From a virus, in UHGV virus genome UHGV-0214148: a stretch of DNA of 64,000 bases; one strand, written 5' to 3'. Positions 3,724 through 58,700 of this stretch are shown here, in pieces; within the stretch, counting starts at the first letter, position 1, and every line of letters begins with the position of its first letter. The position numbers and the translations under genes are program-made. A model generated the notes under the pieces. It had not been told where the DNA came from. It searched no databases and saw nothing but the letters and a program-made list of their open reading frames with translations.

Positions 3724-3760
3724 CACTCTCTCCTAGGTAATATATATCTGAGAAAAAATA
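3724..3760 (-). promoter_or_regulatory. conserved promoter-like motif copy 1
   Basis: Minus-strand consensus TATTTTTTCTCAGATATATATTACCTAGGTGAGAG about 45 nt upstream of the ATG, directly after a terminator. Confidence 0.5.
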
Positions 3761-6492: not shown

Positions 6493-6501
6493 CCCCCCCC
6501 C
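6493..6501. repeat. homopolymeric C9 tract (G9 on coding strand), intergenic between adhesin paralog and fibre-associated gene
   Basis: Read directly from sequence. Confidence 0.95.
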
Positions 6502-7032: not shown

Positions 7033-7042
7033 CCCCCCCCCC
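7033..7042. repeat. homopolymeric C10 tract (G10 on coding strand) immediately after an ATG with AGGAG RBS; frameshifts the adhesin paralog N-terminus
   Basis: Read directly; minus strand AGGAGatcgcgATG-G9-TAA. Confidence 0.95.
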
Positions 7043-16502: not shown

Positions 16503-16548
16503 CTCTATATTCTCCTAATCATTAAAATAGCCGCAGTTGTAAAAAAGA

Positions 16549-22049: not shown

Positions 22050-22089
22050 AGTTGTAAAAACAAAAAAGAAAGGGGAACCGAAGTTCCCC
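22050..22089 (-). terminator. intrinsic terminator (GGGGAAC-CGAA-GTTCCCC)
   Basis: Hairpin + T-run on minus strand. Confidence 0.65.
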
Positions 22090-23203: not shown

Positions 23204-23238
23204 CTCTCACCTAGGTAATATATATCTGAGAAAAAATA
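23204..23238 (-). promoter_or_regulatory. conserved promoter-like motif copy 2
   Basis: Near-identical to copy 1; upstream of HTH gene. Confidence 0.5.
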
Positions 23239-30539: not shown

Positions 30540-30554
30540 AGTATGTTTAAAAAT

Positions 30555-30597
30555 TGTAAAAATAAAAAGAAGTAACCTCTACCCGAAGGTAGAGGTT
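30555..30597 (-). terminator. intrinsic terminator
   Basis: AACCTCTACC-CGAA-GGTAGAGGTT + T-run. Confidence 0.65.
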
Positions 30598-43559: not shown

Positions 43560-45854
43560 TTACTTACCAGCAGCAGCTTTGCCTTCGCCAGCAACGTTAC
43601 CTGCTACACCACCTTCGGTTTGTTTCTGACCGTTCTGTTCAACAGAAACATTGTAAGCCAGTTTTTCTTCAACCAGTTTGGTGATGCCTTTAACCCAGAT
43701 CAGACCAGTGATCGGGCAGTGGCAGATGTGCGCGTTACGCGGCTGTACGGCCAGCTCTTTAGAGGTAGAACCGTTACGCTGAATGTTGATGTTGGTAACC
43801 ATGATCGGAGACCAGAAGTGGTTACCCCAGTTCAGCACGTTGTAGGAACCATCGTCCGCAGTCGGAACTTTCAGGAACCATTGCAGACGACGAGTCCAGG
43901 AACCGTCAGCTGCGTTGTAGATACGCCAGCGGTCATCGTTGGTGGTGATCACTTCGTATTCGTAGCGATCGCCCAGCAGACGTTGGTCGCCCTGTACCAG
44001 CAGCAGCATAGATGCAGTCGGTTCGTCAGTTGCAATAACAACTTTCGGCAGAATGTCCGGATCGGCAGTGTACAGACGCAGCGCAGGAATGAAGCGAGAT
44101 TCCTGGATAGCCTGAGTTACCTGATTACCGATACGCTGTACCAGGCCCTGACGAGCGTTGATCAGTGCATCTTTGGTATCCAGGGACTGTACAACTTCAT
44201 CAACGTTGTAGTCAGACTCTTTGAACCACGGAGCAACCCAGTGACGGCCCAGACCACGAATGGCCGGTTTGTCCCACGGAGTGATCATGCTTGCAGCAGC
44301 GTTACGTACCGCTTCGGTGTAAGACAGCGTCTGAGTGATAGCCAGCTGTTCGTTACGGATGTTAACTGCGGAAATCAGGTCGTCCAGACGTTCGGTATCG
44401 TCGTATTCAACGCCAACCGGAGACTTGGTCAGGATCGGAGAACCGTATTGCAGTTTGTAGTTTTCTTGTTCCCAGATTGGGTCAAGCAGCAGACCCTGGG
44501 TACGACGGTTTTCGTTGGTACGAGTACCATCGAAGCGCCAGCCCATCAGTTCAAGTTTCAGACCGTCCAGGATAACTTTGCCGGTACCAGATTTGGTATC
44601 AACTTTGTTACCGGTAGCGTCGTACAGACCTTCGATTTCCAGTTTGTGACCAGCGATGTCAACTTTACCACCGAACTGACCGGTAGTGAACAGAGACATG
44701 TTGATGGTGATCACATAACGCAGGGTGTAGGAGTTCTGTTCCAGTGATTTCAGTGCCGGAATAGCTTCGCCTTTCCAGTCGGTGGTTTTCGCATTCAGAG
44801 AGAACGCAGTACGACGGAATTGCAGTACCAGCTCACGGCCATCACCTTCAGCAGGACGCTGGAAGGTTGCGAACTGCATGTCACGAACGTGCAGTTTGAT
44901 GAATTTACCTGCTTTCGCTTCTTCGGTCGGTTTACGTACGGAAATCAGCAGGCTGCCCAGAGCACAACCCGGTGCGATTTCATCAGTTTCGTCGTAACCT
45001 TCCTGAACGATACCCGGATGCGCAGACAGCTGGAACAGGTTCAGAGTGTCTTTAGCAAAGCTCAGGTAGTTAGTCGGGTACGGAGGTACACGACCCAGGC
45101 GAACAGATTCGTTCGGTACCAGTTCTTCGCTTACGAAGTATTCAGCGTTTTCACCGGTTTCCATTACGTAAGGAACGATGTTGATCGCTTCGTCCTGAAG
45201 AACGGTGTGGTCAGTCAGCGCTTCGTGCAGGTTACGACGATGATCTTCAACAACGTCTTTGGTCAGTAACGCGTGCATGACACCACGAGAAACGGTGGTC
45301 ACTTTGGTACGTACGGTAATACCAACATCGTTGGTGTCAACGGTGATGGTCGGGAACAGAGTCTCAGCAAAACGAGACTGAGTTTCCAGAGCACGTACGT
45401 TCAGCGTCCAGGTCAGACCCAGGTTTTTGTCGTAATCTTTGTTGGTGTAGTATTCCTGAGCAACAACCATACGCTCTTTGCCCCAGTCGCCGTTACCAGC
45501 TTGGGAACCAGGAATCGCAACGTCCAGGTTAAAACGGCTATGGAATTCTGGCTTAGCGTATTCTTGCGCTACTTTTTCTTGCAGGTCCATACCGTGACCA
45601 GCAGCACCCAGAATCATTGCAGAAGCAACTTCCGCAGCGTGGGACATTTTCTTACCGCCAGCAAACGCGTTTGCGTAGTGCTGTGCAGCATCGTCACGCA
45701 GGGTACCAAAAACTTTCGTGTTGCTACGTACAGACTCACCAGCAACGATGGTGTTCCACATTTCGCCAGCACTGTTGTTACTAATGACGCTTTGTACCAG
45801 CGAGTTACCAGCTTGTACGAGTTTCTCCAGATTAGAGATTCGGGTATCTTTCAT
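43560..45854 (-). CDS. highly expressed major virion protein candidate (764 aa; possibly major capsid protein)
   Basis: E. coli-optimal codon usage (CTG, CGT, GGT, AAC, GAA) contrasting with neighbours; strong bidirectional terminator immediately downstream. Function inferred only from size and expression signature. Confidence 0.85.
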   Translation of the reverse strand: MKDTRISNLEKLVQAGNSLVQSVISNNSAGEMWNTIVAGESVRSNTKVFGTLRDDAAQHYANAFAGGKKMSHAAEVASAMILGAAGHGMDLQEKVAQEYAKPEFHSRFNLDVAIPGSQAGNGDWGKERMVVAQEYYTNKDYDKNLGLTWTLNVRALETQSRFAETLFPTITVDTNDVGITVRTKVTTVSRGVMHALLTKDVVEDHRRNLHEALTDHTVLQDEAINIVPYVMETGENAEYFVSEELVPNESVRLGRVPPYPTNYLSFAKDTLNLFQLSAHPGIVQEGYDETDEIAPGCALGSLLISVRKPTEEAKAGKFIKLHVRDMQFATFQRPAEGDGRELVLQFRRTAFSLNAKTTDWKGEAIPALKSLEQNSYTLRYVITINMSLFTTGQFGGKVDIAGHKLEIEGLYDATGNKVDTKSGTGKVILDGLKLELMGWRFDGTRTNENRRTQGLLLDPIWEQENYKLQYGSPILTKSPVGVEYDDTERLDDLISAVNIRNEQLAITQTLSYTEAVRNAAASMITPWDKPAIRGLGRHWVAPWFKESDYNVDEVVQSLDTKDALINARQGLVQRIGNQVTQAIQESRFIPALRLYTADPDILPKVVIATDEPTASMLLLVQGDQRLLGDRYEYEVITTNDDRWRIYNAADGSWTRRLQWFLKVPTADDGSYNVLNWGNHFWSPIMVTNINIQRNGSTSKELAVQPRNAHICHCPITGLIWVKGITKLVEEKLAYNVSVEQNGQKQTEGGVAGNVAGEGKAAAGK

Positions 45855-46404: not shown

Positions 46405-47967
46405 ATGAATAACAAAATGATGTTGATAACCGCCTTAGCCACATTATACGCTGAAAGTCTTCTGACCGATCCTGAAAAGGACCACGACATCATAAGAAAA
46501 GTGCTGTTAGAGGCTAAGCTTCCTGATTACGCAGAAGAAGGTGACGAACGTGCCGCCCTCGTCGAAATCAAGGATATCATCACATCCATCATAGACGGCG
46601 GTATGCCTTACGACCACACAAACGTCATGAAACGTTTGAAACTGGCCACTACGCAAATACGTCCTCTATACGATACGATTACCAAATTCCTGGAAGATGA
46701 TATTCCAGAAGAACCAGAAGCACGCATCGAGCATCTTAATCGCCAAGTAGCACAATACTACTTTCAGTTACGTCAAGCTATTCAAGGCGTACAACTGAAA
46801 CAAAAATTGGGTCGTACGTTAGGCGCACTGAACGGCACTGAAACGCGTGTTGATTTACAAACGGCGCTCAACGACCTTAAGGATACCTTATCCACGTTCA
46901 GTGAACGCTCTCATAATAAGATTCCTTCTCTGGTAGGGGAATTGATTACTGACAATAAAGCACCCTTCGTACATGTATTCGACTCTATCAGTAAGAAAGC
47001 GGCAGGGAACGGGTTGCGTACGGGGTGGAAAGCAATTAACCAAATGCTTGGCTGTAACAAAGGGATCACTGAAGAACTCTGGCTGATGCCTGCTCTCCCC
47101 TTTAACTGTAAGTCATTATTCAGTTTATTGCTCTCTATTAGCATTCCTGTATTCAACACCCCAGAAAAGGTGATGGCAAATGTTAAAGGTGACTTACAAC
47201 CGGTTATTCTGGATTTAAGTTTAGAAAACGAATTAGATGTTAACTTGGCTTACGCGTATCAAGCACTTTACGGACACTTTGAAGGTACAGCTCCGGTAAT
47301 GGTTGCACCTGAAACGGCAACTGACGAAGAAAAAGCGCTACACAATGCACAAATGTCAGATTACCTCTGTAGTAAAATGCGGGCAAACGGTTGGGAGTAT
47401 ATTTTCCAAAAACACACAAACTCCGATTTTAAAATTCACTATTTGAATGATTTGATTTTAGATTTAAAACGTCGAGGTTATCATGTAGCTGGAATACGCG
47501 GAGACTATTTCGGTACTATCAGCAAAGCAGGACACGGTAACGGTATTGCGGGTAGTGACATTAAAGAAATTTATCGTATCGCGCGAAACATCCAAGTGGT
47601 ACGTAATCGTGGTTTCCTCTTAGCACCACACCAAATCTCACCAGAAGGCAAAAAATTAAAAGCACTCGACCCAGCAAGTTTCTGTAAGAGCTTACCTGGT
47701 CGTGGTCTTTACGACAACTGCTCTAGCTTAGACAACGAAGCTGACGGTGAGATGTATTTTAACAAACGTGTCGTCAGCGGACACAGCTATTTAGAAGTAC
47801 AACGCGGTAAACACCGTACCATTATTGACACCAAAGAAGCTTATCATTATACTGTAATACCTTTCCGCGATGTTGGCATTTTGCCATGGGATTGTGATAA
47901 AGAAGAAACTGTAACAGCCTCGTCGATTAACGTATTTACCGGCGGCATGGGTGACGAACTCTTTTGA
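46405..47967 (+). CDS. hypothetical protein (520 aa)
   Basis: Plus-strand ORF followed by plus-oriented terminators. Confidence 0.8.
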   Translation: MNNKMMLITALATLYAESLLTDPEKDHDIIRKVLLEAKLPDYAEEGDERAALVEIKDIITSIIDGGMPYDHTNVMKRLKLATTQIRPLYDTITKFLEDDIPEEPEARIEHLNRQVAQYYFQLRQAIQGVQLKQKLGRTLGALNGTETRVDLQTALNDLKDTLSTFSERSHNKIPSLVGELITDNKAPFVHVFDSISKKAAGNGLRTGWKAINQMLGCNKGITEELWLMPALPFNCKSLFSLLLSISIPVFNTPEKVMANVKGDLQPVILDLSLENELDVNLAYAYQALYGHFEGTAPVMVAPETATDEEKALHNAQMSDYLCSKMRANGWEYIFQKHTNSDFKIHYLNDLILDLKRRGYHVAGIRGDYFGTISKAGHGNGIAGSDIKEIYRIARNIQVVRNRGFLLAPHQISPEGKKLKALDPASFCKSLPGRGLYDNCSSLDNEADGEMYFNKRVVSGHSYLEVQRGKHRTIIDTKEAYHYTVIPFRDVGILPWDCDKEETVTASSINVFTGGMGDELF

Positions 47968-48070
47968 GTCTGGGGAGCTTCGGCTCCCCCTATAACCCCT
48001 TATGCGTCTCGGAAAGCAAAAAAAAACAGAAGACTATTAATTATGAATGGAAAACAACTACCGAACTAAG

Positions 48071-48100
48071 CAGGGGGTGGTAGCAACACCCCCTTTATTA
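48071..48100 (+). terminator. plus-strand terminator after 46405..47967
   Basis: GGGGGTGGT...ACCCCC + TTTATTA. Confidence 0.6.
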
Positions 48101-48109
48101 GTTAGTAAC

Positions 48110-48271
48110 TTATCTCCTTACAGGTGGTTGGTGAACATTGTGGTTGTTAACCGTTTTCGGTGCCGCAACGAGGCCGAGACGAACATATTCGTCCATGCGT
48201 TGGTTAAACTGAATTTGTTTCTCACGATTTCGCATCGCGGTATTGAACATCTGTATTTGATATTCGTTCAT
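48110..48271 (-). CDS. small protein S1 (53 aa), member of tandem small-gene array
   Basis: ATG with AAAGG RBS; weak similarity (Q-x-x-x-L-G motif) to S2/S3; below the ORF-track size cutoff. Confidence 0.45.
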   Translation of the reverse strand: MNEYQIQMFNTAMRNREKQIQFNQRMDEYVRLGLVAAPKTVNNHNVHQPPVRR

Positions 48272-48332
48272 TTTTCATTACCTTTCGTAATGTTGTAAAA
48301 ACGTCAACAACTTTATGTGTTGACACCGTACA

Positions 48333-48420
48333 GTAGAGACTGTTCCACCAGTCTCTACTGCTTTAACTTCTCTTTGGAAAAGTTAAAGCTAAGAAAAGGG
48401 GTGGTGAAGCACCCTTTTTT
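48333..48420. other. structured intergenic unit U1: variable 10-bp hairpin + conserved 31-nt box + terminator-like hairpin
   Basis: GTAGAGACTG-TTCCAC-CAGTCTCTAC, then TGCTTTAACTTCTCTTTGGAAAAGTTAAAGC, then GGGTG hairpin + T6. Confidence 0.6.
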
Positions 48421-48492
48421 ATACCTACGACCACCATCTCGGCAGGTTACTGTACGAGGAGGAGGGGCGCTGACACGCCCCTCCTTTATTTG

Positions 48493-48666
48493 TTAGTAGT
48501 GTTCACTCCTCTTTTCAGTGAATATCTGCGTGAAACGGTTGGTAGACGGTTTTAACCGTTTATCCATGCCGAGCTGACTATACTTGTAGATACGTTGCTG
48601 TAAATTGGTCTTTGCTGCACTCTGTTCTGCAAGCATTTTGTCAGTAAAGTAGTAACCATTGTTCAT
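48493..48666 (-). CDS. small protein S2 (57 aa), paralog of S3
   Basis: ATG with AGAGGG RBS; aligns with S3 (AEQ...QLG..KRLK.S.N....QIFTE.RS..Y). Confidence 0.55.
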   Translation of the reverse strand: MNNGYYFTDKMLAEQSAAKTNLQQRIYKYSQLGMDKRLKPSTNRFTQIFTEKRSEHY

Positions 48667-48728
48667 GGTAAGCCCTCTTTGTAGGGTGATTAAAGAAATC
48701 CACTACGGAAACGTGGTGGTGCTGTAAA

Positions 48729-48828
48729 GGGTACGCTGGTGCTACAGCGTACCCTGCTTTAACTTCTCTTTCGAAAAGTTAAAGCTATGTAAAGGGGTGT
48801 GACAGCACCCCTTTATTTTATTTAGTAG
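48729..48828. other. structured intergenic unit U2 (same architecture)
   Basis: GGGTACGCTG-GTGCTA-CAGCGTACCC + conserved box + terminator hairpin. Confidence 0.6.
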
Positions 48829-48992
48829 TTACTTCTCCTTTCGGTGAAGATCTGTACTCGAGGATTGTTAGAGGCTTTAAGCCTTTTATTTAATCCGAGT
48901 TGTTGAACCTCTCTTAGTCGTTCATTAAACCTCGCTTGTTCTGCATAGCTGTTTGAGATAGAAGTAAAGATACGTGTATTGTTGTTAGTCAT
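48822..48992 (-). CDS. small protein S3 (56 aa), paralog of S2
   Basis: ATG with GAGG RBS; conserved with S2 at protein level. Confidence 0.55.
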   Translation of the reverse strand: MTNNNTRIFTSISNSYAEQARFNERLREVQQLGLNKRLKASNNPRVQIFTERRSNY

Positions 48993-49020
48993 GTTAAAAC
49001 CTCACACGAGTTGGGGATTA

Positions 49021-49140
49021 AGCTATTACGTACCGGTAATAGCGACAAGTAGGGACTGTATAGGCAGTCCCTACTGCTTTAACTTCTCTTTCGAAAAGAT
49101 AAAGCGCCTATGGGGAGTGTTGGCGCATTCCCCCTTTAGG
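49021..49140. other. structured intergenic unit U3 (same architecture, preceded by 22-bp palindrome)
   Basis: GTAGGGACTG-TATAGG-CAGTCCCTAC (compensatory change relative to U1) + conserved box + hairpin. Confidence 0.6.
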
Positions 49141-49153
49141 TTGTTACCCCCTC

Positions 49154-49282
49154 TCAACTACCGACTGGGTGTTTCTTGGGTTGTGTTAACGTTGGTTGCG
49201 CTATTTCACTAACCCTTCGTTGAAATTCGAGCTGTTTTACGGACAACTCGTTTAACCGTCGAAACAACAGTTCATGTTTCAT
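49154..49282 (-). CDS. small protein S4 (42 aa)
   Basis: ATG with AGGAG RBS at 9-nt spacing. Confidence 0.5.
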   Translation of the reverse strand: MKHELLFRRLNELSVKQLEFQRRVSEIAQPTLTQPKKHPVGS

Positions 49283-49358
49283 GAACTTATCTCCTATGTT
49301 GAATTTGCGAAAATAAATAAAGTGTACCCCTAATCCCGAAAAGGATTAGGGGTTGCTT

Positions 49359-50174
49359 TTATTTAGTCGCTACGTATTGAACATGACCACATTCCTTACA
49401 TTGCACGTTGGCTTTCGGGATTGTCAGGCCGGTTAAAGGAACACGTATTTGGTACTGTGCTCCACATTCTTCACAAACAAAATCGTATTCTGGATAGACA
49501 CGACCTTTTAATTTCTCTTCTTTCCTTAGTGTGCCTGCTAAGAACAGCATCGCACCTAACGCTTCATTAATCTGCTGTTCCCATTCTCCGTCTAACGGGT
49601 AAGCGAACGCACGAGTCAACGTTTCCACCATCTCTGGAGCATTACTTACATAAACGTGTTTCAGTTCAAACTCAACACGCTGTAAGCCAAACAATACGCG
49701 CGCTGTTACTGTAACGTTATCTAATGTTTGTGCAAACACAACAGGATTATCGTCACCGTACATTGCGAATAACGCAGCACGTTCGTATTCGATATCACTC
49801 CACTCGATTAGTTCTACAGATTTAATCTCTTCCGCAATCGCTGCATTACCGAACGTTTCATGTTCCAATAATCCGACGATAACTTCATTCAACGATTTCA
49901 ATTGCTGTAAACGAATCACAGGATCGGTGTTCACGATAAGCAAACGATGCATTCTGGATTTCAACCAGTTAATCGTTCCTTCTACACCACCCCCAAACGA
50001 GCAGATGCTTATCACTTCAGGTTCGCGAAGGATAAGAGTGGATTTTCCTGCTGCCGTACTCAAGTAGAGTTTAAAAGACTTATCGCTGGACTCTACAACG
50101 ATGGCAATGTCTTCAGTTGGAACGAAGTTTTCATTGCTCAGTCCACGCGGAAAATAATCTTTAATGGTAATCAT
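49359..50174 (-). CDS. hypothetical protein with C-terminal zinc ribbon (CxxC-16-CxxC)
   Basis: CEECG...CKECG at the C-terminus. Confidence 0.75.
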   Translation of the reverse strand: MITIKDYFPRGLSNENFVPTEDIAIVVESSDKSFKLYLSTAAGKSTLILREPEVISICSFGGGVEGTINWLKSRMHRLLIVNTDPVIRLQQLKSLNEVIVGLLEHETFGNAAIAEEIKSVELIEWSDIEYERAALFAMYGDDNPVVFAQTLDNVTVTARVLFGLQRVEFELKHVYVSNAPEMVETLTRAFAYPLDGEWEQQINEALGAMLFLAGTLRKEEKLKGRVYPEYDFVCEECGAQYQIRVPLTGLTIPKANVQCKECGHVQYVATK

Positions 50175-50417: not shown

Positions 50418-50443
50418 CTCTCACCTAGGTAATATATATCTGA
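50418..50443 (-). promoter_or_regulatory. conserved promoter-like motif copy 3
   Basis: Core CAGATATATATTACCTAGGTGAGAG upstream of small lipoprotein gene. Confidence 0.5.
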
Positions 50444-58673: not shown

Positions 58674-58700
58674 ATCTCACTAAGGTAATATCTATCTGAG
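58674..58700 (-). promoter_or_regulatory. conserved promoter-like motif copy 4 (degenerate)
   Basis: CTCAGATAGATATTACCTTAGTGAGAT upstream of 57983..58624. Confidence 0.45.

Follow-up and report, generated by a model that had tools for sequence, protein, structure and literature searches.

In the 64,000-nt stretch of the viral genome UHGV-0214148 that was analyzed here and is called the window below, an array of tiny paralogous genes adjoins a helicase gene. The genome is that of a phiKZ-like jumbo phage of the SPN3US group, and the locus is a recombination-prone hotspot of accessory genes, not yet a proven regulatory RNA. On balance we consider it somewhat more probable than not that the small-gene cassettes are self-contained units bounded by a duplicated back-to-back terminator/leader module, which also supplies the homology for their shuffling. 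The locus is a compact natural example of accessory-gene turnover in nucleus-forming jumbo phages, where little is known about this process, and it also bears on the insulation of single genes under phage-encoded RNA polymerases.

A family of small basic proteins next to the helicase gene

The genome was placed by its phiKZ-type major capsid protein and a divergent DnaB helicase, with 83-85% amino acid identity to SPN3US/phiEaH2. Comparison of the region with 50,697 GenBank phage records (megablast and blastn) returned no match and the clade is thus without a close isolate there. The genes flanking the array encode the helicase, a 271-aa Zn-ribbon protein for which a PDB sequence search was uninformative, proteins of 268 and 439 aa, the major capsid protein and a 174-aa protein. 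The helicase gene is convergent to the small genes S1 to S4, which all reside on the minus strand, and a GC hairpin with a plus-strand T-run (48072..48094, plus strand) is located 3' of S1, facing the helicase gene. A bidirectional terminator-like hairpin is found between the Zn-ribbon gene and S4 (49326..49353). A replication origin or iterons beside the helicase gene were considered and set aside: the units between the small genes are absent from phiEaH2 and Asesino and number one to three in close relatives, and the GC skew has no inflection. A CRISPR-like array is likewise rejected, given a spacing of 320-396 nt and genes between the repeats.

Four minus-strand ORFs of 42-57 aa with good ribosome-binding sites had been pointed out in an earlier note on this DNA, and all of them are found where it had placed them. 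S1 (48110..48271) encodes a small basic protein of 53 aa that matches the family profile with 2.7e-21. S2 (48493..48666, 57 aa) and S3 (48822..48992, 56 aa) are assigned to the same family by alignment and profile. Alignment also identifies S4 (49154..49282, 42 aa) as a truncated allele of a 52-aa family member, the frame of which is shifted by a 14-nt deletion relative to L010. Shine-Dalgarno sequences (AAGG for S1, GAGGG for S2, GAGG for S3 and GGAG for S4) precede the ATG by 6-9 nt. A 3'-end remnant of a fifth paralogue, S5, which is intact in L005 and L008, lies on the minus strand within spacer unit 1 (48421..48457). A profile search of the window revealed no family member besides S1-S4.

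Homology of S2 and S3 and a weaker motif in S1 had already been noted; the motif KQxxFxQR, common to the four ORFs as well as to SPN3US and other homologues, together with the profile unites them in one family and extends it to S4. This family is under purifying selection. The pN/pS ratio is about 0.17 for S1 versus diverged alleles and about 0.2 for S2, the alleles of S3 exhibit synonymous differences only (range over S1-S3, 0-0.2), and values of 0.35-0.5 are obtained for S4. The paralogous genes are mutually only 51-63% identical in nucleotides, and an identical S3 protein (P0009) is present on at least 90 contigs; at least 140 carry the family protein P0015. In total, the family comprises 62 clusters at 90% identity, every one of them named 'hypothetical', is represented by only 12 clusters among 1.84 billion proteins and is confined to SPN3US-like chimalliviruses. 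Pfam and PHROGs searches with S1-S4 and a PDB sequence search with the family were uninformative. The cassette gene products are basic helical proteins of 42-61 aa; the S proteins have pI values of 9.8-11.3 and are strongly hydrophilic (GRAVY -0.75 to -1.15), and the AF2 model of S3 consists of one long N-terminal helix and a disordered tail. A soluble helix of this kind speaks against a type I toxin-antitoxin system, for which a small hydrophobic membrane toxin together with an overlapping antisense RNA would be expected. An accessory or host-interaction role appears plausible, and host-interaction or anti-defence factors may reasonably be sought among these fast-diversifying basic helical proteins.

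The spacer module and its ancestral layout

The S genes are separated by a repeat unit of about 102 nt, the three copies of which start at 48317, 48713 and 49033 and are 66-73% identical. Each spacer contains four hairpins, H0, H1, box and H3. H0 is variable and lies between H1 and each ribosome-binding site, in unit 1 that of S1 (48303..48324, minus strand); it recurs on the same strand at 48700..48719 in unit 2, where compensated changes are seen in the L024 type, and at 49022..49043 in unit 3. H1, also on the minus strand, has the stem GTAGAGACTG in unit 1 (48331..48360), where it directly abuts the box with no linker, GGGTACGCTG in unit 2 (48728..48755) and GTAGGGACTG in unit 3 (49048..49075). 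Its loop is found in either orientation among relatives, as exemplified by GTGCTA versus TAGCAC for unit 2 and TATAGG versus CCTATA in L005 for unit 3, and this also holds for unit 1. The earlier observation that these spacer hairpins differ in sequence while pairing is kept can be put in numbers: pairing of H1 is intact in all of 29 variants (100%), and two-sided changes affect 7 of the 11 pairs. The box is a 13-bp hairpin on the minus strand, with the sense-strand loop CAAA in copy 1 (48360..48389) and GAAA in the other two. Copy 2 (48756..48785) represents the consensus sequence and copy 3 (49076..49105) is chimeric at one variable stem pair, reading A.A on the plus and U.U on the sense strand. 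The GC hairpin H3 carries the plus-strand T-run described before in all three units. It is bidirectional terminator-like in unit 1 (48394..48420, plus strand; T6 on the plus and TTTTCTT on the minus strand), has its loop flipped in L007 in unit 2 (48789..48816, plus strand) and exhibits a weak T-run in unit 3 (49112..49133, plus strand). Directly 3' of S2, unit 1 harbors an extra GC hairpin with a plus-strand T-run (48458..48487, plus strand), the own 3' hairpin of S2, which in L005 is joined straight to a box.

The near-invariant box proves to be 30 nt long. Three copies with at most one mismatch occur in the window where none is expected (100 shuffles), and the 64 kb contain no further copy. 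In 220-kb viral contigs and in 241 million metagenome records it is found only at the present locus of the same phage clade, which disposes of the box as a genome-wide signal. The view that it is conserved in sequence rather than in structure has to be revised. The box is a 30-bp inverted repeat with perfect 10-bp arms and an asymmetric 10-bp centre, lacks extrahelical bases, contains a single U.G, shows one compensated pair (A-U to U-A) and pairs its invariant U.G on the sense strand only. Over 32 variants, 24 of the 30 positions are invariant; the loop varies between GAAA, CAAA, CGAA, GAAAA and GAATA, the majority being GAAA or GAAAA closed by C-G. Plus-strand ORFs running over the box have no conserved starts, are broken by loop flips and are by-products of box conservation, so that a coding function was rejected. 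Rfam 15 yielded no family even at permissive E-values (best scores 14-22 bits versus thresholds of 34-100 bits, E at least 0.16), ARAGORN detected neither tRNA nor tmRNA, and no relevant hit came from searching the rest of the window for a simple AT-palindrome motif.

Terminator-like sites are abundant in the window (14 found versus 2.1 expected). Stable hairpins with T-runs are present in the module, in the layout of back-to-back intrinsic terminators, i.e., two GC hairpins about 20-180 nt apart, each with a U-tract on its own strand. Ordinary minus-strand genes in the window have the T-run of their hairpin on the minus strand; those of H3 lie on the plus strand. Terminators of the hairpin-plus-U type have been mapped in phiKZ and 201phi2-1, as have regions of bidirectional termination between convergent genes (PMC10914365, PMC11512511). 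Our module shares with the latter its GC hairpins with U-tracts, which lie on opposite strands at a distance of some tens of nucleotides where convergent genes meet, and the ancestral single-copy module in SPN3US and relatives has exactly the same layout. The module of the window differs in being reiterated within a co-directional gene array, in an AT-rich spacer that is conserved base for base and in a stable hairpin preferentially on one strand. The module hairpins are candidate terminator or insulator parts for jumbo-phage engineering.

The orientation of the H3 T-runs also bears on the possibility that the units are genes for small RNAs read from the plus strand (H0-H1-box-H3 with a U-run, about 100-125 nt). 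Each such gene would lie antisense to the neighbouring small gene, overlapping its 5' end or directly adjoining it, and would act as its repressor. A succession of several stem-loops and an intrinsic terminator is typical of small RNAs, the H3 T-runs keep consistently to the plus strand, that strand also gives the more stable H3 in 22 of 29 variants, and short transcription units and small RNAs are known from related jumbo phages (PMC11512511). On the other hand, the plus strand of the array has no shared promoter motif and lacks the early-promoter consensus as well as T5ACAAC; TATG, the core of the phiKZ late promoter (PMC7598289), occurs in the H0 loop of unit 1 but not in units 2 and 3. The plus-strand box contains a C.A mismatch and H1 variants contain A.C mismatches, the loops as likely seed regions flip orientation freely, and the Rfam search gave no match. 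Taken together, we regard a small RNA gene as decidedly improbable. Promoter signals for the sense strand are equally sparse. A T5ACAAC promoter-like motif lies 29 nt upstream of S1 and no promoter was found for S2-S4. A sigma-70-type scan of the window retrieved four promoter-like sites versus 4.0 expected, none of them in the box/H1/H3 module. With misfitting hexamers and a scan at chance level, the box was rejected as a sigma-70 promoter; it was also rejected as a phage early promoter, as the window contains the early-type motif CAGATATATATTACCTAGGTGAGAG at four other places and the array lacks it.

Related phages do not lack the structure, as became evident from a covariance-model search of the kind the earlier note had proposed. 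Model R1 detects no other copy in the window and matches SPN3US, pEa_SNUABM_29, L014, L015 and L017 over its full length at the corresponding position (E 2e-4 to 1e-2). The matches in other genera (helicase identity 70-83%) share the three-hairpin layout and a related AU-rich core, UUUUCG.AAAGA.AA. There the module occurs once, with the Zn-ribbon gene on one side and the first small gene on the other, a position to which the hairpin at 49326..49353 corresponds in the window; the second small gene of SPN3US is without an AU hairpin. The order of the single module is GC hairpin, T-rich arm, A-rich arm, GC hairpin, with a T-rich tail on the minus strand for the first hairpin and on the plus strand for the second, the counterpart of H1. 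In the model we favor, the spacer H3-box-H1 would be a duplicated copy of this ancestral back-to-back terminator module. A cassette would begin with a structured leader, made up of the right box half, H1, H0 and the ribosome-binding site, continue with the gene for a basic helical protein and end with H3 and the left box half. H3 would stop antisense transcription on the plus strand coming from the convergent helicase side and would cap the 3' end of the upstream small-gene mRNA. In the sense RNA, box and H1 would fold into helices of 13 and 11 bp that directly adjoin each other, at or close to the 5' terminus of the message of the next gene. Terminator and leader activity of the hairpins is thus predicted from their sequence and arrangement.

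Cassette joints in the box and their probable origin

The number of S genes at this site is zero in phiEaH2 and Asesino, one in pEa_SNUABM_29, two in SPN3US and two to four in the clade of the window. Close relatives contain six paralogues, S1-S6, in at least ten different neighbour pairs. A duplicating accessory cassette had been among the options offered before, and these 0-4 copies, many orders and joints within the repeated module bear it out. BLAST breakpoints between relatives fall at the repeat units. The type of H1/H0 always tracks the downstream gene and that of H3 the upstream gene, whereas box variants (loop type and pair 7/24) assort with either flanking side; at pair 7/24, the reciprocal chimeras A.A and T.T both occur beside the A-T and T-A forms. 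It follows that the cassette joint lies in the box, with one exception, the L010 S3-S1 junction, which is situated outside. Since the 30-nt box and the CAG/CTG bases of H1 are nearly identical in every cassette, they would constitute the patch where homologous recombination joins cassettes. As with the PeSL cassettes of T4-like phages, co-circulating phages would in this way gain, lose and re-order paralogues. One small-protein family would thereby diversify as its cassettes are duplicated and exchanged at a defined joint of 30 nt. Public data already contain more than 30 natural variants, and the locus offers a testable model of modular shuffling outside T4-like phages.

The PeSLs (promoter-early stem-loops) are mobile regulatory cassettes of T4-type phages (Arbiol et al. 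2010, PMC2839356; Comeau et al. 2014, PMC4122927). In both cases, conserved composite intergenic stem-loop motifs flank small genes without annotated function in hypervariable regions, and close relatives differ by whole-gene insertions, deletions and replacements joined at the motif. Our module likewise sits upstream of small 'hypothetical' genes in a hyperplastic region, with 0-4 copies across relatives, and the motif supplies recombination homology together with expression signals, the latter being a presumed role here. Differences are also obvious: PeSLs carry a sigma-70 consensus promoter, number about 50 per genome and are scattered beside unrelated ORFans, while we find a single locus with one paralogue family and no sigma-70-like promoter, because the phage uses its own RNA polymerases. 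Furthermore, the conserved core of our module is a 13-bp hairpin, on either side of which a covarying hairpin is located.

Site-specific recombination, with the box as an integron-attC-like or Xer/lox-like core site at which cassettes are excised and inserted, would also place joints in the box. The box is an inverted repeat whose copies all have the same direct orientation and all mark cassette joints, the reciprocal chimeras place crossovers inside it, and its ends GCTTTAAC and GTTAAAGC resemble the attC motifs RYYYAAC/GTTRRRY. As in integron arrays, small ORFs in tandem are each bounded by an imperfect palindrome whose structure is kept while its sequence varies, and cassette order differs between relatives. 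However, neither an integrase nor another recombinase is among the six flanking genes, as scanned with Pfam and PHROG, each box end is one base off the attC core consensus, and the L010 junction escapes the box. In addition, attC sites are bulged, 57-141 nt long and have an R''/L''/L'/R' organisation that the 30-nt box does not have. All cassettes are paralogues of one family, as expected from unequal crossing-over. For homologous recombination in phages, 30-45 bp of identity can be enough. We therefore grant a dedicated recombination site hardly any probability and retain homologous recombination as the presumable mechanism of shuffling.

Covariation, loop inversion and strand asymmetry

Covariation had been taken as an argument for a selected RNA structure. 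Pairing is indeed maintained, as 96.5% of cells pair versus 45-59% with the partner slid, yet the argument is weakened by loop inversions, a signature of template switching. Inversions are frequent for H1 (at least seven pairs) and occur in H3 as well. They are also seen at the unrelated terminator 49326..49353, the loop of which has the same orientation in 11 and the flipped one in 13 of 24 relatives. Template switching in DNA generates loop inversions and multi-base, two-sided changes in stems in single events (PMC8794818). Judged by the inversions, including those at the unrelated terminator, the 'compensatory' changes may derive from this process and do not prove selection on RNA. The locus is therefore a cautionary case: compensatory changes and loop inversions alone are no proof of a functional RNA, and their origin by template switching is probable.

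Carried to its end, this line of thought would have hairpins and box without a function of their own, as DNA palindromes created, perfected and homogenised by template switching during replication and by gene conversion in a tandem duplication. The chimeric box variants, which point to ongoing exchange, would agree with it. However, the three-hairpin layout and AU core are kept at one position across genera, the wobble asymmetry and the consistent plus-strand T-runs would be unexpected, and the centre of the box has one orientation in all 32 variants, despite flipping of the adjacent hairpin loops. Purely neutral palindromes are in our opinion very improbable. The constant orientation of the box centre hints at an orientation-specific function that the cassette model leaves unexplained. 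Moreover, 24 of 30 box positions are invariant, even across paralogues with only 51-63% nucleotide identity of their genes, although a T/A-rich terminator spacer needs no such base-for-base conservation. Selection or gene conversion, beyond a mere spacer function, must hold the box sequence.

Box and H1 do favor the sense strand. All wobble cells, 27 in the box and 5 in H1, are G.U on this strand and A.C on the other, and for every one of the 29 variants box plus H1 fold more stably on the sense strand, with a mean advantage of 6.25 kcal/mol, which makes H1 a poor fit to a plus-strand terminator. These features point in the direction of a sense-strand cis-regulatory RNA, an operator or leader bound by a factor, possibly the S proteins themselves, that controls translation, stability or read-through of each cassette. 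The prevailing GAAA/GAAAA loop closed by C-G, the box centre that never inverts and the invariant stem, suggestive of sequence-specific recognition, are consistent with such an element, as are the S proteins with their basic character, single long helix and conserved K-Q-x-x-aromatic motif and the co-occurrence of S genes with a box or AU hairpin across genera. Against it stand the variable loop, which argues against boxB-style loop recognition, and the second SPN3US small gene without AU hairpin. Sequence-specific reading of an A-form stem would be needed, which is unusual. The strand asymmetry, finally, goes back to roughly 6-7 independent events, most of them C-to-T changes in the coding strand, and mutation bias could account for it. 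We consider a cis-regulatory RNA unlikely. In a bolder and, to our mind, likewise unlikely reading, the box hairpin would be an orientation-specific recognition element, in sense RNA or single-stranded DNA, bound by a phage factor, most plausibly the S proteins, and the array would represent autoregulated, self-recognising cassettes or recombinase-independent cassette exchange in nucleus-forming jumbo phages. To our knowledge, no class of self-recognising or recombinase-independent exchange cassettes has been described for chimalliviruses.

The resemblance of S proteins and box to the lambda N/nut boxB pair may serve as a lead only. Differences are that the boxB hairpin has a conserved GNRA-like pentaloop and a stem of 5 bp versus 13 bp in the box, where the stem and not the loop is conserved, that the S proteins are not arginine-rich and that no boxA-like sequence is conserved in the alignment. 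The likeness is that a short RNA hairpin with the loop GAAA or GAAAA adjoins the gene of a protein that is small, basic and helical, and the K-Q-x-x-aromatic motif of the S proteins recalls residues K14-W18 of lambda N.

Four small genes of a jumbo phage

The window derives from a phiKZ-like (chimallivirus) jumbo phage. Its ORF at 43560-45854 has a match to the major capsid family of PhiKZ and the ORF at 46405-47967 is a divergent DnaB helicase, the protein being 83-85% identical to those of Erwinia phage phiEaH2 and Salmonella phage SPN3US. Nucleotide searches with the array region against 50,697 GenBank phage records gave no match and no isolate of the clade is found there. Close relatives are contigs of ~220-228 kb in IMG/VR, gut metagenomes and E. 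coli and Shigella assemblies, and others were deposited as circular 'plasmids' with complete genomes of E. coli and Enterobacter ludwigii, namely NZ_CP173450.1 (L033; ~222 kb, complete assembly of a urinary E. coli) and NZ_CP134650.1 (L034; ~222 kb, complete assembly of E. ludwigii from a gull cloaca). Deposits of this jumbo-phage clade as plasmids or within bacterial assemblies suggest a carrier state or co-purified phage.

As described in the earlier note, the minus strand carries four ORFs, each preceded by a good ribosome-binding site: S1 (48110-48271), S2 (48493-48666), S3 (48822-48992) and S4 (49154-49282). The homology proposed for S2 and S3 and, more weakly, S1 is borne out and extends to S4; all four proteins can be aligned to one another and to proteins of 47-55 aa whose genes occupy the equivalent position in relatives, with which they share a KQxxFxQR..E motif and a conserved C-terminal tail. 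SPN3US has two such copies, pEa_SNUABM_29 and the relatives L014, L015 and L017 have one each, and none is found in phiEaH2 and Asesino; the window holds no further family members. Profile searches returned 62 clusters among 5.8 billion proteins, every one annotated as 'hypothetical' and every one from this phage group, and, in an exhaustive run over 1.84 billion cluster representatives, 12 family matches. The genes are real, because pN/pS between orthologous alleles is ~0.17-0.2 for S1 and S2 and S3 alleles differ by synonymous changes only. In the window S4 is frame-shifted by a 14-nt deletion (42 instead of 52 aa). With pI values of 9.8-11.3 the S proteins are basic, and they are hydrophilic too; AlphaFold2 confidently predicts one N-terminal helix of 30 residues and, after it, a disordered tail, and Pfam, PHROGs and PDB searches were uninformative as to function. 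Next to the array, a conserved 271-aa protein with a C-terminal CxxC...CxxC zinc ribbon is encoded at 49359-50174 on the minus strand. Its gene always adjoins the small-gene site, even in phages devoid of small genes, and sequence searches of Pfam, PHROG and PDB provided no functional assignment.

The spacer module and the shuffling of cassettes

The spacers between the small genes carry three copies of a ~102-nt unit, which on the sense (minus) strand comprises the hairpin H3, a 30-nt box, the hairpin H1 and a fourth, variable hairpin, H0, that lies between H1 and every ribosome-binding site. In agreement with the earlier note, H1 (10-12 bp) differs in stem sequence among the copies with pairing intact, H3 is a GC hairpin with its T-run on the plus strand, and the box is near-invariant. 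Its copies (48360, 48756 and 49076) have at most one mismatch, with no other occurrence in the 64 kb, where none is expected by chance either. The view that the box is conserved in sequence and not in structure is wrong, as it forms a 13-bp hairpin itself. Terminator-like sites are strongly enriched at the array (14 versus 2.1 expected). We lean slightly towards each spacer being a transcription-punctuation module that descends from a pair of convergent terminators. Antisense transcription from the direction of the helicase would be halted at H3 ahead of each small gene, and H3 would also cap the message of the upstream small gene; box and H1 would form the leader of the next gene as abutting helices, and the near-identical box would act as a homology patch at which recombination shuffles cassettes, each consisting of leader, small gene and 3' hairpin.

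Shared segments of close relatives are 84-97% identical at the nucleotide level, yet gene content differs. The order is S4-S3-S2-S1 in the window, S4-S3-S2 in L024-L032, S4-S3-S1 in L010, S4-S1 in L006 and L033, S4-S2 in L042 and, with the further paralogues S5 and S6, truncated S2-S5-S1 in L005, S4-S5-S2 in L035 and L039, S6-S1 in L034, S6-S3 in L041 and S5-S3 in L037. A 37-nt remnant of S5 persists in the window (48421-48457). In every case the H1/H0 type goes with the downstream gene and the H3 type with the upstream gene, while box variants (loop type, variable pair) combine with either flank. At the variable box pair the reciprocal chimeras A.A and T.T both exist beside the A-T and T-A forms, and the cassette joint therefore lies inside the box. 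One junction is outside the box: at 6861-7050 of L010, S2 is deleted and its first codons are joined in frame to the S1 leader, which is why gene callers report an 'extended S1' of 79-83 aa (P0005, P0007, P0011). We regard it as extremely unlikely that the box is a site-specific recombination site. Searched as a palindromic pattern matching either strand, it occurred in only nine stretches among 241 million metagenome records, all from this locus and clade, and no Rfam family matches the module.

The element consists of repeat-bounded small-gene cassettes with modular shuffling, in line with the accessory cassette that the earlier note had listed as an option. In T4-like phages, small genes lie between conserved promoter/stem-loop motifs (PeSL), through which they are gained, lost and replaced (PMC2839356). 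The array shows the same shuffling pattern, a functional parallel and not family membership; it differs in lacking a sigma-70 promoter, in being confined to a single locus and in that all cassettes are paralogues.

Covariation and strand asymmetry

From relatives 32 distinct unit variants were gathered, 29 of which were aligned in sense orientation for pairing. All H1 cells are paired (100%), with two-sided change at 7 of 11 pairs; for H3 the values are 89% and covariation at 4 of 9 pairs. In the box 12 of 13 pairs are constant, one of them as U.G, and the remaining pair is A-U (n=15), U-A (n=6), G.U (n=4) or unpaired (n=4). Sliding the 3' partners by 1-3 columns lowers pairing from 96.5% to 45-59%.

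Orthologous hairpins repeatedly have the same stem with the loop in opposite orientation (at least seven H1 pairs and several H3), and the CGAAAA loop of an unrelated terminator (49326-49353) reads the same in 11 relatives and as its reverse complement in 13. Such lineage-wide small inversions fit replication template switching, a DNA-level process that leaves inverted loops combined with two-sided stem changes of several bases as its footprint (PMC8794818). Covariation alone is therefore no proof of RNA, and the selected RNA structure originally deduced from it is weakened without being refuted. Several asymmetries remain. Wobble cells in the box (27) and H1 (5) are without exception G.U on the sense strand, where the opposite strand has A.C, the sense strand gives the more stable box plus H1 in 29/29 variants (mean difference 6.25 kcal/mol), and the box centre keeps its orientation in 32/32 variants, although the arms are 10-bp perfect. 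Furthermore, 24 of 30 box positions are invariant, compared with 51-63% nucleotide identity among the paralogous genes. Together these features point to a strand-specific constraint; mutation bias is an alternative for the asymmetries, because independent events are few and mostly C-to-T on the coding strand. Functionless palindromes maintained by template switching and gene conversion, for which the loop flips might speak, appear very unlikely to us beside the constant centre orientation and the strand bias of the box. An operator on the sense strand, to which a factor such as the S proteins binds, would also entail strand-specific constraint and is rather unlikely. Loop orientation is also polymorphic among close relatives in perfect hairpins at 48072-48094 and 48460-48485.

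Ancestry of the module and promoter-like motifs

A covariance model of H3-box-H1 found no further copy in the window. Applied to related phages, in the kind of search that the earlier note had proposed for phage genomes, it gave weaker, full-length matches at the equivalent position of the SPN3US, pEa_SNUABM_29, L014, L015 and L017 genomes. There, a GC hairpin, an AU hairpin UUUAUUUUCG(c)AAAGAAAAUAAA and another GC hairpin precede the first small gene. These matches in other genera mark the layout and the core UUUUCG.AAAGA.AA as ancestral, with the exact box sequence being specific to the window clade. In the other genera the T-rich tail of the first hairpin, which follows the zinc-ribbon gene, is on the minus strand and that of the second on the plus strand, and the two complementary tails jointly form the AU hairpin. 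This layout is that of back-to-back terminators at a convergent junction, for which phiKZ provides experimentally mapped examples (PMC10914365); in 201phi2-1, mapping revealed hairpin terminators with conserved motifs (PMC11512511). phiEaH2 has no small genes, and its helicase and zinc-ribbon gene converge directly onto one bidirectional hairpin. The window units look like copies of the ancestral module, duplicated along with a small gene. Hairpins of ordinary minus-strand genes in the window have T-runs on the minus strand, whereas those of H3 are on the plus strand, the strand on which H3 is more stable in 22/29 variants. Plus-strand antisense small RNAs with ends at H3 would suit this orientation and are distinctly unlikely; a punctuation module, which we prefer, would suit it as well.

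Within the array, a promoter candidate is recognisable for S1 only, in the form of a T5ACAAC motif. TTTT(T)ACAA(C/T) occurs on the minus strand at 48292-48300, 30553-30561, 22051-22059 and 16536-16544, 22-52 nt before four start codons (S1 and three others) and usually directly after a terminator T-run; TTTTACAA is found six times on the minus and once on the plus strand. The motif may be a middle- or late-promoter element. A 25-nt motif, CAGATATATATTACCTAGG(T/A)GAGAG, lies on the minus strand at 3726-3750, 23204-23228, 50418-50442 and 58674-58698 (two copies identical, one with 1 mismatch, one with 4), and every copy precedes a minus-strand gene by 40-60 nt. Containing the TATATTAC core of phiKZ early promoters, the motif is probably the early promoter that the virion RNA polymerase of this phage uses; it is absent from the array. 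G/C runs of 9-10 nt occur at 1511-1519, 6493-6501 and 7033-7042, two of the three being intergenic and upstream of minus-strand genes; these slippage-prone tracts could act as phase-variable switches or give rise to sequencing errors. Directly past the helicase stop, 47972-48030 contains a hairpin GGGGAGCTTCGGCTCCCC without T-run, TTATGCGTC and then nine A. The element includes TATG, the phiKZ late-promoter core, is kept in SPN3US, phiEaH2 and pEa_SNUABM_29 despite diverged surroundings, and might be where a short RNA starts on the plus strand, with its end at the 48072-48094 hairpin.
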